A stretch of DNA of 64,000 nucleotides from a plasmid. Positions 2,946-11,062 of the stretch are shown piece after piece. Position numbers and translations under genes: made by a program. Where the stretch lies: the sequence record LC546831.1; one strand, given 5' to 3'. The notes below the pieces were generated by a model. It did not search any database. It saw nothing but the letters and a program-made list of their open reading frames with translations, and was not told the origin of the DNA. The stretch's first letter is position 1, and each line of letters begins with the position of its first letter.

Positions 2946-3095
2946 AACGGGGTCTGACGCTCAGTGGAACGAAAACTCACGTTAAGGGATTTTGGTCATG
3001 AGATTATCAAAAAGGATCTTCACCTAGATCCTTTTAAATTAAAAATGAAGTTTTAAATCAATCTAAAGTATATATGAGTAAACTTGGTCTGACAG

Positions 3096-3968
<873 letters not shown>

Positions 3969-4105
3969 TCAATATTATTGAAGCATTTATCAGGGTTATT
4001 GTCTCATGAGCGGATACATATTTGAATGTATTTAGAAAAATAAACAAATAGGGGTTCCGCGCACATTTCCCCGAAAAGTGCCACCTGACGTCTAAGAAAC
4101 CATTA

Positions 4106-4165
4106 TTATCATGACATTTATTATCATGACATTTATTATCATGACATTTATTATCATGACATTAA
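4106..4165. repeat. Tandem 15-bp repeat (ATCATGACATTTATT, three extra copies) between the tnpR stop and the bla promoter region
   Basis: Sequence ATTATT(ATCATGACATTTATT)x3ATCATGACATTAACC; canonical Tn3 has a single ATTATTATCATGACATTAACC here. Confidence 0.8.
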
Positions 4166-4183
4166 CCTATAAAAATAAGCGTA

Positions 4184-4903
<720 letters not shown>

Positions 4904-7900
4904 ATGCCCGTTGACTTTCTGACCACTGAGCAGACTGAAAGCTATGGCAGATTCACCGGTGAACCGGATGAGCTTCAGCTGGCACGATATTTTCATCTTG
5001 ATGAAGCAGACAAGGAATTTATCGGAAAAAGCAGAGGTGATCACAACCGTCTGGGCATTGCCCTGCAAATTGGATGTGTCCGTTTTCTGGGCACCTTCCT
5101 CACCGATATGAATCATATTCCTTCCGGCGTCCGGCATTTTACCGCCAGACAGCTCGGGATTCGTGATATCACCGTTCTTGCAGAATACGGTCAGAGGGAA
5201 AATACCCGCCGTGAGCATGCAGCGCTGATACGTCAGCACTATCAGTATCGTGAATTTGCCTGGCCCTGGACATTTCGCCTTACCCGTCTTTTATATACCC
5301 GGAGCTGGATAAGCAACGAACGTCCTGGCCTGCTTTTCGATCTGGCGACAGGGTGGCTTATGCAACATCGTATTATTCTCCCCGGAGCCACTACGCTGAC
5401 CCGGTTGATTTCAGAGGTAAGGGAAAAGGCGACGTTGCGCCTGTGGAACAAACTGGCACTGATACCGTCAGCCGAACAACGTTCACAGCTGGAGATGCTG
5501 CTGGGGCCAACTGATTGCAGCCGCCTGTCTTTACTGGAATCACTGAAAAAAGGCCCTGTGACCATCAGTGGTCCGGCGTTTAATGAAGCAATTGAACGCT
5601 GGAAAACTCTGAACGATTTTGGCTTGCATGCTGACAACCTGAGTACACTCCCGGCTGTGCGCCTGAAAAATCTCGCACGTTATGCTGGTATGACTTCGGT
5701 GTTCAATATTGCCAGGATGTCACCGCAGAAAAGGATGGCGGTTCTGGTTGCCTTTGTCCTTGCATGGGAAACGCTGGCGTTGGATGATGCACTGGACGTT
5801 CTGGACGCCATGCTGGCCGTTATCATCCGTGACGCCAGAAAGATTGGGCAGAAAAAACGGCTCCGCTCGCTGAAGGATCTGGATAAATCTGCATTGGCGC
5901 TCGCCAGCGCATGTTCGTACCTGCTGAAAGAAGAAACACCGGACGAATCGATTCGTGCTGAGGTGTTCAGCTACATCCCCAGGCAAAAGCTGGCTGAAAT
6001 CATCACGCTTGTCCGTGAAATTGCCCGGCCCTCAGACGATAATTTTCATGAAGAAATGGTGGAGCAGTACGGGCGCGTTCGTCGTTTCCTGCCCCATCTG
6101 CTGAATACCGTTAAATTTTCATCCGCACCTGCCGGGGTTACCACTCTGAATGCCTGTGACTACCTCAGCCGGGAGTTCAGCTCACGGCGGCAGTTTTTTG
6201 ACGACGCACCAACGGAAATTATCAGTCGGTCATGGAAACGGCTGGTGATTAACAAGGAAAAACATATCACCCGCAGGGGATACACGCTCTGCTTTCTCAG
6301 TAAACTGCAGGATAGTCTGAGGCGGAGGGATGTCTACGTTACCGGCAGTAACCGGTGGGGAGATCCCCGAGCAAGATTACTACAGGGTGCTGACTGGCAG
6401 GCAAACCGGATTAAGGTTTATCGTTCTCTGGGACACCCGACAGACCCGCAGGAAGCAATAAAATCTCTGGGTCATCAGCTTGATAGTCGTTACAGACAGG
6501 TTGCTGCACGTCTTGGCGAAAATGAGGCTGTCGAACTCGATGTTTCTGGCCCGAAGCCCCGGTTGACAATTTCTCCCCTCGCCAGTCTTGATGAGCCGGA
6601 CAGTCTGAAACGACTGAGCAAAATGATCAGTGATCTGCTCCCTCCGGTGGATTTAACGGAGTTGCTGCTCGAAATTAACGCCCATACCGGATTTGCTGAT
6701 GAGTTTTTCCATGCTAGTGAAGCCAGTGCCAGAGTTGATGATCTGCCCGTCAGCATCAGCGCCGTGCTGATGGCTGAAGCCTGCAATATCGGTCTGGAAC
6801 CACTGATCAGATCAAATGTTCCTGCACTGACCCGACACCGGCTGAACTGGACAAAAGCGAACTATCTGCGGGCTGAAACTATCACCAGCGCTAATGCCAG
6901 ACTGGTTGATTTTCAGGCAACGCTGCCACTGGCACAGATATGGGGTGGCGGAGAAGTGGCATCTGCAGATGGAATGCGCTTTGTTACGCCAGTCAGAACA
7001 ATCAATGCCGGACCGAACCGCAAATACTTTGGTAATAACAGAGGGATCACCTGGTACAACTTTGTGTCCGATCAGTATTCCGGCTTTCATGGCATCGTTA
7101 TACCGGGGACGCTGAGGGACTCTATCTTTGTGCTGGAAGGCCTTCTGGAACAGGAGACCGGGCTGAATCCAACCGAAATTATGACCGATACAGCAGGTAC
7201 CAGCGAACTTGTCTTTGGCCTTTTCTGGCTGCTGGGATACCAGTTTTCTCCACGCCTGGCTGATGCCGGTGCTTCGGTTTTCTGGCGAATGGGCCATGAT
7301 GCCAACTATGGCGTGCTGAATGATATTGCCAGAGGGCAATCAGATCCCCGAAAAATAGTCCTTCAGTGGGACGAAATGATCCGGACCGCTGGCTCCCTGA
7401 AACTGGGCAAAGTACAGGCTTCAGTGCTGGTCCGTTCATTGCTGAAAAGTGAACGTCCTTCCGGACTGACTCAGGCAATCATTGAAGTGGGGCGCATCAA
7501 CAAAACGCTGTATCTGCTTAATTATATTGATGATGAAGATTACCGCCGGCGCATTCTGACCCAGCTTAATCGGGGAGAAAGCCGCCATGCCGTTGCCAGA
7601 GCCATCTGTCACGGTCAAAAAGGTGAGATAAGAAAACGATATACCGACGGTCAGGAAGATCAACTGGGCGCACTGGGGCTGGTCACTAACGCCGTCGTGT
7701 TATGGAACACTATGTATATGCAGGCAGCCCTGGATCATCTCCGGGCGCAAGGTGAAACACTGAATGATGAAGATATCGCACGCCTCTCCCCGCTTTGCCA
7801 CGGACATATCAATATGCTCGGCCATTATTCCTTCACGCTGGCAGAACTGGTGACCAAAGGACATCTGAGACCATTAAAAGAGGCGTCAGAGGTAGAAAAC

Positions 7901-7909
7901 GTTGCTTAA
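4904..7909 (+). CDS. tnpA: Tn3-family transposase TnpA (1001 aa)
   Basis: 1001-aa ORF MPVDFLTTEQTESYGRFTGEPDELQLARYFHL... ending 4 bp inside the right IR, as in Tn3. Confidence 0.97.
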   Translation: MPVDFLTTEQTESYGRFTGEPDELQLARYFHLDEADKEFIGKSRGDHNRLGIALQIGCVRFLGTFLTDMNHIPSGVRHFTARQLGIRDITVLAEYGQRENTRREHAALIRQHYQYREFAWPWTFRLTRLLYTRSWISNERPGLLFDLATGWLMQHRIILPGATTLTRLISEVREKATLRLWNKLALIPSAEQRSQLEMLLGPTDCSRLSLLESLKKGPVTISGPAFNEAIERWKTLNDFGLHADNLSTLPAVRLKNLARYAGMTSVFNIARMSPQKRMAVLVAFVLAWETLALDDALDVLDAMLAVIIRDARKIGQKKRLRSLKDLDKSALALASACSYLLKEETPDESIRAEVFSYIPRQKLAEIITLVREIARPSDDNFHEEMVEQYGRVRRFLPHLLNTVKFSSAPAGVTTLNACDYLSREFSSRRQFFDDAPTEIISRSWKRLVINKEKHITRRGYTLCFLSKLQDSLRRRDVYVTGSNRWGDPRARLLQGADWQANRIKVYRSLGHPTDPQEAIKSLGHQLDSRYRQVAARLGENEAVELDVSGPKPRLTISPLASLDEPDSLKRLSKMISDLLPPVDLTELLLEINAHTGFADEFFHASEASARVDDLPVSISAVLMAEACNIGLEPLIRSNVPALTRHRLNWTKANYLRAETITSANARLVDFQATLPLAQIWGGGEVASADGMRFVTPVRTINAGPNRKYFGNNRGITWYNFVSDQYSGFHGIVIPGTLRDSIFVLEGLLEQETGLNPTEIMTDTAGTSELVFGLFWLLGYQFSPRLADAGASVFWRMGHDANYGVLNDIARGQSDPRKIVLQWDEMIRTAGSLKLGKVQASVLVRSLLKSERPSGLTQAIIEVGRINKTLYLLNYIDDEDYRRRILTQLNRGESRHAVARAICHGQKGEIRKRYTDGQEDQLGALGLVTNAVVLWNTMYMQAALDHLRAQGETLNDEDIARLSPLCHGHINMLGHYSFTLAELVTKGHLRPLKEASEVENVA

Positions 7910-7984
7910 CGTGAGTTTTCGTTCCACTGAGCGTCAGACCCCTAAACCTTACGGTTTTACCAGCTTTCGCCGGCTCCGGAACCC

Positions 7985-8056
7985 TTACAGGAACCAGTTG
8001 ATCAGTTGCAATACAGCCGCAACTAAGGTCAGAATCGCGATAATCAGCTCAATCAT
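7985..8056 (-). CDS. Candidate TisB-like type I toxin, 23 aa MIELIIAILTLVAAVLQLINWFL (upstream in-frame ATG at 8071 would give 28 aa MEVRG...)
   Basis: Short all-hydrophobic ORF preceded by GGAGG with 7-nt spacing; core AILTLVAAVLQLI resembles TisB IAILILKLIVAALQLL; about 270-nt leader; a perfect antisense partner lies upstream (next entries). Confidence 0.4.
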   Translation of the reverse strand: MIELIIAILTLVAAVLQLINWFL

Positions 8057-8141
8057 CCCCCGCACCTCCATCTCTGTGGCGCGTAGGTTACTAGGCAGTC
8101 ACCTTTCCTCTAATCCGCCCATCCGGATATGCCATTCACTT

Positions 8142-8165
8142 CGCTAAAAGAAGAATTTCACCACG
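8142..8165. repeat. 24-bp perfect direct repeat CGCTAAAAGAAGAATTTCACCACG, copy 1, inside the leader of the candidate toxin mRNA, 86-109 nt upstream of its start codon
   Basis: Identical 24-mer occurs again at 8400-8423. Confidence 0.9.
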
Positions 8166-8365
8166 CTGCCGCCCAGGCCGCCGGGGGCTAACCCGGACAG
8201 AGGGCTTGCACCACTCTCACAACCTAAATTATGAAATTGGCACTGTTTCACTACATATTCAGTTTCTAAGGAGAACATAATGGCTACTGAATAGGACGGT
8301 TCCACGGGTGTTTCAACTCCAGCTGCATGATTATAAGCAGAAAAATGGATTGATCTACAGCTTGT

Positions 8366-8394
8366 TTGATTCACTGTGAGATACGGCGTATAAT
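8366..8394 (+). promoter_or_regulatory. Near-consensus sigma70 promoter TTGATT-17 bp-TATAAT driving a plus-strand small RNA
   Basis: TTGATT at 8366-8371, 17-bp spacer, TATAAT at 8389-8394; predicted TSS near 8401, the first base of repeat copy 2. Confidence 0.5.
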
Positions 8395-8400
8395 TAAGCC

Positions 8401-8491
8401 GCTAAAAGAAGAATTTCACCACGTTGTATGTATGCTGCCCTCGCTAAGTAGCTTACTACAGAGTAAAAAACCCGCATACTTGCGGGTTTTT
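8401..8491 (+). ncRNA. Candidate IstR-1-like antitoxin sRNA of about 90 nt. Its 5-prime 23-24 nt are perfectly complementary to the toxin mRNA leader, and it ends at a strong intrinsic terminator
   Basis: Promoter at 8366-8394; the transcript begins with repeat copy 2 (8400-8423), which equals copy 1 on the same DNA strand, so the RNA is antisense to the minus-strand toxin transcript; the terminator hairpin CCCGCATACTTGCGGG plus T6 lies at 8470-8491. Confidence 0.4.
8464..8491. terminator. Bidirectional rho-independent terminator (AAAAAACCCGCATACTTGCGGGTTTTTT) serving the minus-strand umuC operon and the plus-strand sRNA
   Basis: GC stem with A-run and T-run on either side, located 7 bp after the umuC stop. 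Confidence 0.7.
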
Positions 8492-8497
8492 TACTTT

Positions 8498-9760
8498 CTA
8501 AGTCAGTTTAGCCACCGGTATATCCTGAATTCTCGTTGTGTAGCAGGGGGATAATAACTCGCGGCGCATCGCCCAGGTTGTATTGCGTCCCTGGCCGGCA
8601 AACCAAACTTTCCCCAACCCGGACTGGTTTATACCATCGATAACCGTCATCAGTTGTTCACTGCCGGCGCGCGGCGGCTGTTCGTCGAATAGGTCTATCT
8701 GGCCGGGCTTGTCGCAGAAATCGTTCAACATGATCCCCACTTTTTGATAGCGAAACCCGTCACGCCAGATCGCATCGAGGGCTTTTACTGCTGCTGCAAC
8801 AATGTCGCGCGTGTCTTGTGTGGCCAGCATGAGCTGCACGCTGTGGCTGTTGGCGTAATAAGGCTCATGAGGTGCAAAGGGGCTGGTTCGCGCAAACACC
8901 GAAATGTGCCGGCAGTATTGCCTCTCGCGGCGCAATTTCTCGGAAGCGCGCTCTGCGTATTGGCACACCGCCTGGCGCATGTCCTGCAGCTGCGTGACGC
9001 GCTGGCCAAATGACCGGCTGACGATGATCTGCTGCTTTGCCGGCAGCGCATCGATCGAGATACACGGCACACCGTTCAGTTCACGCACGGTGCGCTCGAG
9101 CACAACCCCGAACGTCCTGCGTATCAACGCCTGATTGCTGTCGGCAAGCTGCAGTGCAGTCGTGATCCCCATCGCAGCCAGCTTTTTGGTCAACTGGCGC
9201 CCACATCCCCAAATTTCGCTGACCGGCAGTAACGCCATCAACCGACGTTGTCTATCCCGGTTTGTCAGATCAACGACGCCACCGGTAGCCGGCCAGGTTT
9301 TAGCGGCGTGATTGGCGAGTTTGGCCAGGGTCATTGTCTGAGCAAGGCCGATCCCGCAGGTGAGCCCGGTTTGCTGAAGCACCGTATCACGGACTCGGCG
9401 CCCGTAGTCTTCGAATGACTCTGTGGCATCGATGCCGGCAACGTGAAGAAATGCCTCGTCGATGCTATAGATTGTCATCGCCGGCGCGAGGGATTCTAAA
9501 ATCGTCATGCAGCGTGCCGACATGTCGCCGTACAAGGCATAATTGCTTGAAAAGACGGTTACATTTTGATTTTTAATGATTTCCTTGGCCTGGAAAAACG
9601 GCATGCCACGTTTGAGACCGAGCTTTTTCCCCTCCCGGTTGATCGCCACCAGGGCACCATCATTATTCGAAAGCACGGCGACCGGTCTGCCTTTCAGATC
9701 TGGCCGGAAGACCTGTTCGCAGGCACAGTACATCGAATTGACGTCAGCCAGCAAAAACAT
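8498..9760 (-). CDS. umuC: Error-prone DNA polymerase V subunit UmuC/MucB/ImpB family (Y-family polymerase); start likely MFLLADVNSMY (9760), track ORF begins at 9766
   Basis: Strong similarity to UmuC along the whole length (MF..CDVN..Y..CE.VFRP.L.G.PV.VLSNNDG..., SIDEAF, TLAKLANHAAK). Confidence 0.9.
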   Translation of the reverse strand: MFLLADVNSMYCACEQVFRPDLKGRPVAVLSNNDGALVAINREGKKLGLKRGMPFFQAKEIIKNQNVTVFSSNYALYGDMSARCMTILESLAPAMTIYSIDEAFLHVAGIDATESFEDYGRRVRDTVLQQTGLTCGIGLAQTMTLAKLANHAAKTWPATGGVVDLTNRDRQRRLMALLPVSEIWGCGRQLTKKLAAMGITTALQLADSNQALIRRTFGVVLERTVRELNGVPCISIDALPAKQQIIVSRSFGQRVTQLQDMRQAVCQYAERASEKLRRERQYCRHISVFARTSPFAPHEPYYANSHSVQLMLATQDTRDIVAAAVKALDAIWRDGFRYQKVGIMLNDFCDKPGQIDLFDEQPPRAGSEQLMTVIDGINQSGLGKVWFAGQGRNTTWAMRRELLSPCYTTRIQDIPVAKLT

Positions 9761-10188: not shown

Positions 10189-10195
10189 AATTTAT

Positions 10196-10211
10196 CTGTA
10201 TATATATACAG
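10196..10211. promoter_or_regulatory. Canonical LexA (SOS) box CTGTATATATATACAG 8 bp upstream of umuD
   Basis: Perfect CTGT-N8-ACAG palindrome read directly. Confidence 0.85.
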
Positions 10212-10375
10212 TAAATCATAAACGAAACGTGCAGCCATGCAAGCCTGAAACCGGGTCTCGTAGCGCGATCCGACGTAATATAATAATTTTCTGAGTGATT
10301 TTCTCTGCAGCTTTTGACGTTGTTCGTGTGTGTTTGCACACATGATATCCACCAAAACTGTGGATAACGCGCCGC

Positions 10376-11062
10376 TCAGACCGTTGGTGCCTCGATGGCC
10401 AGGATGAGTGAGGGATTGTCATTGCGAACGGCACCCACAGCTGGCGAGACTGGTTGCCAGGTGAAATCCTCCGCTTGCAGGCTGTACACGTCAGCCTGCA
10501 TATGGCCAGAGGGCGGAACTAAGCGGGTATCGAGCCAGTCGCGCGCGGCGGCCGGCGGCAGCGCCAGAGGGCGCCTGTCATGAATATCCGCCAGGCCGGC
10601 ATGACTGGCGGCCGTGATAATGACAACGCTGCCGCCGCTGTCGCTGTCTGCTGCGTACAGCGCCGCAAAGAACAGCGGCTGGCGATCGGCGCCACGGATA
10701 AAATAGGGCTGCTTCAGCCGCGGATTGTCCGGCGACTTTTTCCATTCGTACCAGCCCGATGCCGGCACCAGCGCGCGGCCATGCTTCCAGAGCGGGGAGA
10801 ACATCCGGCTGTGCTCTGCGGTTTCAACGCGGGCATTGATGAGCGGCGGTTTTCCCTGTTCGCGCCACCATGCCGGCGCATAGCCCCAGTTAACCGGCGT
10901 CAGCTGCAACTGACCATCGTGGTGATGAAACACCGGCACTGGCGTGCCAGGGGCTACGTTATACCGTGCATGCCAGTCACCGGCGGTGCTAACTGGTGTA
11001 TCAGGCGCCAGGGCGGCGAGAAATTCGTCGCGGCTATGGAATTGTGCAAAGCGGCCACACAT
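10376..11062 (-). CDS. SOS response-associated peptidase (SRAP, YedK/DUF159 family), abasic-site DNA-protein crosslink protein
   Basis: N-terminal MCGRF with catalytic Cys2 and the overall SRAP signature; sits upstream of umuDC on the same strand. Confidence 0.8.
   Translation of the reverse strand: MCGRFAQFHSRDEFLAALAPDTPVSTAGDWHARYNVAPGTPVPVFHHHDGQLQLTPVNWGYAPAWWREQGKPPLINARVETAEHSRMFSPLWKHGRALVPASGWYEWKKSPDNPRLKQPYFIRGADRQPLFFAALYAADSDSGGSVVIITAASHAGLADIHDRRPLALPPAAARDWLDTRLVPPSGHMQADVYSLQAEDFTWQPVSPAVGAVRNDNPSLILAIEAPTV

Follow-up and report, generated by a model that had tools for sequence, protein, structure and literature searches.

A putative plasmid-borne type I toxin–antitoxin module of the long-leader class, parted from its toxin terminator by a Tn3-type insertion

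Among the type I toxin–antitoxin pairs with long toxin leaders, DqlB/agrB of the plasmid pOXA-48 has been shown experimentally to be toxic, to be rescued by its small RNA (sRNA) and to cause post-segregational killing (PMC12365149). For zorO/OrzO, a long processed 5' untranslated region (UTR) with an upstream ribosome-access region has been reported, and a BLASTn survey across Escherichia coli found neither tis/istR nor shoB/ohsC on plasmids (PMC11264685). In Kristiansen (2016), the dinQ family is defined by a striking nucleotide similarity to dinQ in the 5' UTR. In T1TAdb, the class is delimited by an antisense RNA gene that lies 5' of the toxin mRNA, divergent and non-overlapping, less than 300 nt away and with at least 15 nt of complementarity. 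Here we analyse a 64,000-nt stretch of a plasmid (LC546831.1; this whole stretch is called the window), in which positions 7985-8497 most probably hold a plasmid-borne type I toxin–antitoxin module of the long-leader, divergent trans-acting sRNA class, with predicted toxicity and RNA expression. The antisense gene of this locus is arranged as T1TAdb describes, and opposite it stands a small (<60 aa) hydrophobic open reading frame (ORF) with its own Shine-Dalgarno sequence (SD), promoter and terminator. As read from the sequence, the reading rests on the anatomy of the locus, its conservation, the co-variation of a repeated box and purifying selection on the ORF.

Ten sequence-distinct versions of the module, here called lineages, were dissected; they come from IncN, IncF-type and untyped plasmids and from contigs of Enterobacterales (Serratia, Klebsiella, Enterobacter, Lelliottia, Buttiauxella, Erwinia, Mixta and Brenneria). 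In the window, the toxin ORF (MIELIIAILTLVAAVLQLINWFL; 7985-8056, minus strand) comprises 23 codons and a stop and encodes a peptide predicted to form a single transmembrane helix, with a GGAGG at 8069-8065 on the same strand, 8 nt ahead of the ATG. A preliminary description of this DNA had named the ORF and the GGAGG, and all the sequence features that it listed are there, with coordinates shifted by 1-3 nt. A 28-aa version in the ORF listing, starting at an upstream ATG within the SD, was rejected: other lineages do not have that ATG in frame, and the 23-aa start is therefore taken as the conserved and real one. Along the otherwise aliphatic helix runs a polar stripe with heptad spacing at positions 3, 10, 17 and 20, whose residues are polar or small in every lineage (E/G, T/S/N, Q/H/S and N/K/E, respectively). 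The block that includes the GGAGG (CACAGAGATGGAGGTGCGG; 8061-8083, minus) is invariant in all lineages, and half of the SD is buried in a local hairpin, CGCGCC...GGUGCG (local folding energy -12 to -15 kcal/mol); averaged over its five bases, the unpaired probability lies near 0.4 for almost every lineage and construct (range 0.22-0.41). The toxin promoter, with a -10 TATAAT at 8335-8330 and a weak -35, lies together with the first ~16 nt of the mRNA at 8308-8335 (minus). From the predicted transcription start near 8323, the mRNA would measure about 400 nt and its leader about 267 nt, close to the 270 nt first estimated; the position of the -10 is fixed in all ten lineages.

The antisense gene is tied to this leader by a perfect direct repeat, in which 8142-8165 equals 8400-8423 (24 of 24 nt; 26 of 27 when extended to 27 nt). 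Only these two copies occur in the 64 kb, and none is expected (100 shuffles). The first copy, a U-rich leader box (UUCUUCUUUU; 8142-8165, minus), would be the site that the sRNA targets in the 5' UTR of the toxin, 85-109 nt ahead of the AUG where about 100 nt had been proposed, and by analogy is a candidate ribosome standby site. At the second copy, near 8401, transcription would start from the promoter TTGATT-17-TATAAT (8366-8394, plus), which is the sole sigma-70-like match in 7800-8700, is much nearer to consensus than the toxin promoter and has an equivalent -35/-10 in all lineages; the two predicted starts are about 77 nt apart. For the predicted antitoxin sRNA (8401-8497, plus), folding of the 97 nt that begin at 8401 (z = -6.35) leaves the first 24 nt free as a 5' tail, followed by one stem-loop in the middle and by the hairpin of the terminator. 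The strong terminator expected at 8491 is indeed there, as a 12-bp hairpin (AAAAAACCCGCA/TGCGGGTTTTTT; 8464-8493, plus) with flanking A and T runs and compensatory changes in 4 of 11 stem pairs across lineages, and the RNA is slightly longer than the 90 nt initially suggested, at about 95-97 nt. Our terminator scanner overlooked this hairpin because the T-run is absorbed in an A-T extension of the stem, which also makes it bidirectional. In the window, the cognate duplex of sRNA and box has an energy of -46 kcal/mol, and the extended complementarity of the sRNA is confined, within the 64 kb, to the toxin leader.

All ten lineages have in common the ORF, the SD block, a toxin terminator (TTTATAGCCG...CGGCTTTTTT) and, running divergently, a gene for the sRNA that has a -35, -10 and terminator to itself. 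The central part of the leader contains 150-200 nt that cannot be aligned from one subgroup to another. The ORF keeps its frame and a length of 23-24 codons throughout, at pairwise ratios of non-synonymous to synonymous divergence (pN/pS) of 0.08-0.6 and with synonymous sites near saturation (pS 0.5-0.9); judged from these comparisons, it is under purifying selection, and hence there is evidence for its translation. The longest exact repeat ranges from 13 to 27 nt, the 13-nt case being a longer repeat broken by one mismatch, and always ends 82-100 nt from the ATG. The box itself differs by lineage (GTGGTGAAATTCTTCTTTTAGCG; a form ending in TTTTGG; TGGTGAACTTCCTCTTAGC; GCGTGGAAAACTTATCTTCTTAGCA; GCGGGGTGAAA and its continuation), yet both copies change together. 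Thus, UUUUAGC versus UUUUGG and, in Mixta, GCGUGGUG versus GCGGGGUG are differences found in both copies, and the distinct boxes UGGUGAACUUCCUCUUAGC, in three lineages, and GCGUGGAAAACUUAUCUUCUUAGCA, in one, are each matched in both. Cognate duplexes of sRNA and box average -47 kcal/mol against -35 for non-cognate ones, which sorts the lineages into three specificity groups. The type I pair with TisB/IstR-1-like geometry put forward in the preliminary description therefore holds well, with its parts kept in ten divergent lineages and its box co-varying in both copies.

The toxin ORF was found on about 110-120 PLSDB plasmids, most of them conjugative, from Klebsiella, Citrobacter, Enterobacter, Escherichia, Serratia, Raoultella and other hosts. 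In E. coli, 21 of 5,426 complete genomes carry it, always on a plasmid and never on the chromosome. A scan of GTDB with a 19-nt SD motif, at one genome per species, gave 10 matches and added Buttiauxella, [Erwinia] mediterraneensis, Mixta theicola, Brenneria izbisi, Huaxiibacter and Klebsiella michiganensis; the other four matches (Patescibacteria, Carboxylicivirga, Burkholderiaceae and an unclassified metagenome-assembled genome) lack the module and were set aside as chance, about 4.3 being expected by calculation. In relatives, the module adjoins the replication region, with rep genes and iterons. The adjacency to umuDC, which had been part of the first proposal, is seen in the window and is incidental, since this neighbour is absent in the IncN and IncF-type relatives.

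When K-12 loci were measured with the same script as the window locus, the geometry proved to be shared with two chromosomal systems. In shoB/OhsC, 19 nt of complementarity begin at sRNA nucleotide 2, the target ends 75 nt upstream of the AUG and the copies are 248 nt apart; in tisB/IstR-1, the target ends 113 nt upstream, the copies are 258 nt apart and the longest exact run is 10 nt; the corresponding values for the window locus are 24 nt, 85 nt and 258 nt. ShoB/OhsC resembles the module in that its sRNA is divergent, does not overlap the toxin gene and pairs through its outermost 5' nucleotides with a long toxin leader, and also in the C-terminus of the toxin (...IIIAVLQLILLFL in ShoB, ...LVAAVLQLINWFL in the module; 10 of 23 residues identical in the C-terminal alignment). 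However, ShoB is chromosomal, has 26 aa and begins with the basic stretch RYLIKRVIK, whereas the module toxin has no basic residue. Peptide profile scores against ShoB, for which NCBIfam has no curated model, were below 5 bits, and neither the mRNA profile of the module nor blastn detected nucleotide similarity to shoB/ohsC. With TisB/IstR-1, the module shares an sRNA target about 100 nt upstream of a structurally hidden ribosome-binding site, that is, a standby-site logic, and its residues E3/T10/Q17/N20 align with D5/K12/Q19/D22 of TisB. The systems differ in that TisB has 29 aa and the module toxin 23, in that the module has no conserved upstream ORF like tisA, and in that the complementarity of IstR-1 is interrupted, whereas that of the plasmid-borne module is continuous over 24 nt. 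ZorO/OrzO of E. coli O157 is, as described, like the module in its leader, and blastn of the module against 5,426 genomes gave no match on an E. coli chromosome.

The core of the toxin had been said to resemble TisB, and TisB is indeed its only profile match in Pfam and NCBIfam, at 16.5-19.1 bits against cutoffs of 38 (TIGR04459) and 25 (PF13939); the resemblance is thus sub-threshold and does not amount to family membership, and the TisB profiles gave no match to the peptides of three divergent lineages. No LexA box (CTGT-N8-ACAG-like) was found in 8280-8400 by a search that recovered the umuD box at 10194-10213, and blastn of the module against the chromosomes of the 5,426 complete E. coli genomes gave no match, tis/istR included. 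A link of the module to the SOS response or to umuDC was dismissed on account of the missing LexA box and the non-conserved neighbourhood. The Rfam model of IstR gave no match at E ≤ 10 in the window or at E ≤ 1 in four other lineages. A permissive Rfam scan of the same five sequences returned only sub-threshold, terminator-driven matches to ohsC, AgrB and leader families, among them ohsC_RNA RF02495 at 22.2-24.4 bits (gathering threshold 50; terminator only) and AgrB RF02891 at 19.7 bits (gathering threshold 40; terminator only and on the wrong strand).

By analogy of function, DqlB/agrB is the best counterpart of the module. Both DqlB/agrB and DinQ/AgrB combine a short, helical, hydrophobic toxin with a divergent, trans-acting sRNA that pairs in the 5' UTR; in DqlB/agrB, the sRNA pairs 69-103 nt upstream of the AUG and the SD lies in a closable stem-loop, as in the module, and dqlB of pOXA-48 is likewise plasmid-borne and next to the replication region. 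Could the locus then be a member of an already named family, that is, of DqlB/AgrB (DinQ-like) or of TisB/IstR-1? The shared architecture and plasmid niche, the residues MI-L-I...AVL(E/Q)LI common to the peptide and DqlB and the weak TisB match speak for it, as does the report that dqlB homologues occur on 83 of 501 (16.6%) IncN plasmids, in a clade with IncL/M genes (PMC12365149). Nevertheless, DqlB has 31 aa and an unrelated box, and the models NF041473 (DqlB) and NF041472 (DinQ) gave no match at E ≤ 10 to five peptides of the family, although the positive controls scored 73.5 bits for true DqlB and 54 bits for DinQ. A pOXA-48-type plasmid for comparison was located via a primer arm published with PMC12365149. 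At the RNA level, a profile of dqlB mRNAs found dinQ at 1.9e-43, tisB at 1.8e-5 and shoB at 9e-5, but the window locus only at E = 0.12 over 46 nt; the weak matches to tisB and shoB extend over most of the mRNA length, which hints at a shared RNA-level ancestry of the chromosomal families. Conversely, an nhmmer profile of the module mRNA weakly matched the SD/start region of tisB (E = 0.017 in a small database) and had no match in dinQ, dqlB or shoB. With regard to TisB, 18 bits against a cutoff of 38, the lack of a LexA box and the absence of blastn similarity to E. coli chromosomes all speak against membership.

On IncN plasmids such as pKPC-c9fd (598-693), there is a genuine dqlB, 87% identical to that of pOXA-48 and annotated by the Prokaryotic Genome Annotation Pipeline (PGAP), so the published IncN clade is explained without the module. 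IncN plasmids appear to carry either dqlB, as does pKPC-c9fd, or the module, as does pKPC_FCF/3SP at 3430-4040. These comparisons used a DNA search, the tblastn search of DqlB against plasmids having come back empty, probably through low-complexity masking. In most of the RefSeq dqlB records listed, PGAP gives the gene its name, whereas the module ORF is unannotated or labelled "hypothetical" in all the records inspected. Taken together, membership of a named family is unlikely.

Since the module passes no curated family model, it is, by its sequence, a family of its own within an established and well-known type I architecture. A collection of 15 billion proteins contains neither the 23-aa nor the 28-aa peptide as an exact match, and no prior description of the module was found, the figures and supplement of Kristiansen (2016) and the contents of T1TAdb lying outside the scope of that search. 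The 58-71 aa "hypothetical proteins" that databases hold at this place are over-calls ending at the toxin stop codon, and a 76-aa ORF within the leader (8144-8374; hypothetical in the Serratia marcescens plasmid PWN146p1) was dismissed, its region not being conserved in other lineages. It is possible, though we would not count on it, that the module represents a fifth family, so far uncatalogued, among the long-leader type I toxins of enterobacteria, and that this family is confined to plasmids. In such a family, the 5' end of the toxin mRNA may be a degenerate copy of the antitoxin, with three-way co-variation of mRNA 5' end, box and sRNA; the direct repeat may also offer recombination a safe exit, through which both promoters are deleted at once; and the module may be a plasmid link between the chromosomal lineages of TisB, ShoB and DinQ, which the dqlB mRNA profile weakly connects.

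A mechanism can be proposed from the anatomy and from the described systems. The weak toxin promoter would yield the ~400-nt mRNA with its ~267-nt leader and the 23-residue hydrophobic peptide, and the stronger divergent promoter an sRNA of about 95 nt. As the sRNA promoter is closer to consensus, an excess of antitoxin is expected; the first ~24 nt of the sRNA are predicted to be unstructured and are perfectly complementary to the box. Because the SD is half sequestered in a conserved hairpin, translation of the toxin probably needs ribosomes to enter upstream, at the open box, in analogy to tisB, zorO and dinQ. Pairing of the sRNA with the box would block this loading and/or create a substrate for RNase III, and the toxin would stay off while the plasmid is present. 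In cells that have lost the plasmid, the sRNA would be the first to decay, and membrane damage by the toxin would follow. We infer such post-segregational killing from the occurrence on plasmids only in the collections searched, from the adjacency to replication genes and from the precedent of DqlB/agrB on pOXA-48. In addition, the extreme 5' end of the mRNA may mimic the sRNA in cis and hold the primary transcript closed before processing, a behaviour described for tisB. Each of the ten lineages shows a likeness between the 5' end of the sRNA and the first ~12 nt of the toxin mRNA as predicted, and this end of the mRNA can base-pair with the 3' portion of the box, AGC/GCU co-varying with GG/CC. 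Pairing of the first 40 nt with the extended box region is predicted at -24 to -33 kcal/mol (z of -1.9 to -4.5 relative to shuffled sequences). When the 5' end and the box were concatenated, RNAalifold recovered only part of this long-range helix, with little compensatory change.

Several observations weigh against an addiction module built and regulated in this manner. The pairing of the mRNA 5' end with the box is barely cognate-specific (-10.6 versus -9.0 kcal/mol), so the cis-mimic step is offered tentatively, and truncating the 5' end by 40 nt moved the mean unpaired probability of the box in global folds only from 0.35 to 0.42, with small and inconsistent changes. Gene conversion between direct repeats, instead of selection for pairing, might in principle explain why the two box copies change in concert. 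The similarity of the peptide to known toxins is sub-threshold and may partly reflect hydrophobic composition. Finally, about one sixth of the related records among the matches listed have lost both promoters, and the module would therefore seem, from these sequences, to be dispensable.

The losses take a particular form. In Serratia pQE01 (~1500-1710), in a plasmid contig of K. michiganensis (~6300-6530) and in others, independent deletions have arisen from crossovers placed precisely inside the two copies of the box. These deletions take out the promoters of toxin and sRNA together and leave the ORF, the leader and a box fused to the 3' half of the sRNA; in pQE01, the SD is also mutated, from GGAGG to GGGGG. 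Such a crossover would be a safe route to losing the module.

Is the pair real, with a role other than addiction, such as abortive-infection defence against phages, stress dormancy or regulation of the replication region? The frequent loss by deletion and the position beside rep genes and iterons would fit, and chromosomal TisB and DinQ are understood to act in SOS-induced persistence and not in plasmid maintenance (PMC11264685 and general knowledge). However, all matches in the plasmid collection and in the complete E. coli genomes lie on plasmids, there is no LexA box, the closest tested plasmid analogue is an addiction module, and the extended complementarity of the sRNA is limited to the toxin leader. 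We consider such a role quite improbable. Least credible of all is a neutral duplication or recombination scar with a chance ORF, the plus-strand hairpin being the umuC terminator: chance hydrophobic ORFs and promoter hexamers do arise (the promoter scan gave 1 match versus 0.9 expected in shuffles), the hairpin at 8464-8493 is bidirectional and directly beyond the umuC stop, and crossover between box repeats does occur, but the same arrangement persists in lineages without umuDC and across 150-200 nt of unalignable intervening sequence, ORF length and frame are retained despite near-saturated synonymous sites, the boxes diverge between lineages and match within each, the sRNA promoter, start position and terminator are conserved with compensatory stem changes, and a perfect 24-nt repeat is unexpected by chance. 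Nor was the repeat seen without the ORF in relatives, the pattern that the preliminary description associated with a scar; relatives with a single box still carry the ORF and are the deletion derivatives described above.

In the window, the putative addiction module has met with another kind of damage. A Tn3-family transposon of 4994 bp (bla-tnpR-tnpA; 2949-7942), with 38-bp inverted repeats at 2949-2986 and 7905-7942, a TnpA of 1001 aa and a 5-bp target duplication, TAAAC, at 2944-2948 and 7943-7947, has inserted into the toxin 3' UTR. Between the ORF and the insertion point remains a small hairpin with a GAAA loop (7960-7973, minus), found in all ten lineages, as CCGGC-GAAA-GCUGG in the window and as CUGG-GAAA-CCAG or CCGG-GAAA-CCGG in others. 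The original rho-independent toxin terminator (2917-2942, minus; stem 2942-2923 followed by TTTTTT), kept in all lineages, now lies about 5 kb from the toxin. Excision of the element in silico rejoins the toxin 3' UTR to this canonical minus-strand terminator, and the S. marcescens plasmids PWN146p1 and pAHRB3 hold the uninterrupted joined sequence, with the terminator contiguous with the ORF. The separation of toxin and terminator had been anticipated, with the hairpin placed at 2921-2945, and so had the present path of the toxin transcript, into the transposon antisense to tnpA, with which the geometry agrees within 1-3 nt. On the toxin strand beyond the insertion, the terminator scan found no terminator-like site over about 2.5 kb.

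The insertion has displaced the toxin terminator only; the ORF, SD, both promoters and sRNA of the window are intact and identical to those of pAHRB3. Without its terminator, the toxin mRNA should be less stable, and exposed to Rho and to convergent read-through from tnpA. Judged from the sequence, the insertion thus probably weakens or disarms the module, with the antitoxin still protecting the cell. Within the element, between tnpR/res and bla, four tandem copies of a 15-nt unit, TTATTATCATGACAT, at 4100-4165 yield several overlapping promoter-like matches (ATGACA-17-TATTAT).

On the other side of the module, the sRNA terminator is a symmetric A6-stem-T6 hairpin that stands directly beyond the umuC stop codon (8498), and it probably serves as terminator for the sRNA as well as for the umuDC operon, which converges on it. 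Upstream of umuD lies a near-consensus LexA box, ATCTGTATATATATACAGTA (10194-10213), and just past it a gene for an SOS-response-associated peptidase (SRAP/YedK-like; 10376-11062), which together with umuDC forms a small plasmid-borne DNA-damage cluster. Among the relatives, the module of a Buttiauxella metagenome-assembled genome (3830-4550) is a mosaic, with a toxin coding sequence of the Lelliottia type and a leader, box and sRNA of the Klebsiella sp. type, a pattern that suggests recombination at the invariant SD block. In IncN-type lineages, a motif T(T/C)GGTAAAAC, within ATTCGGTAAAAC, occurs on both sides of the module in one orientation (pKPC_FCF/3SP 3359, 3408 and 4066, and four other loci); it is absent around the copy in the window, and might mark the edge of a mobile cassette or have a regulatory function in the backbone.

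At least 110 sequenced plasmids carry the module without annotation, among them IncN plasmids with KPC from Klebsiella, Enterobacter, Citrobacter and E. coli. Its lineages, with at least three groups, provide a natural set of diversified specificities of sRNA and target for studying and engineering orthogonal antisense control, and the transposon in the 3' UTR and the deletion between box copies are natural examples of disarming. The understanding of type I systems is left unchanged by this locus, which is of use for plasmid biology and annotation. If the module is an addiction system, it would aid the persistence of resistance plasmids, and strategies to cure such plasmids would have to neutralise it, as has been shown for DqlB/agrB on pOXA-48.

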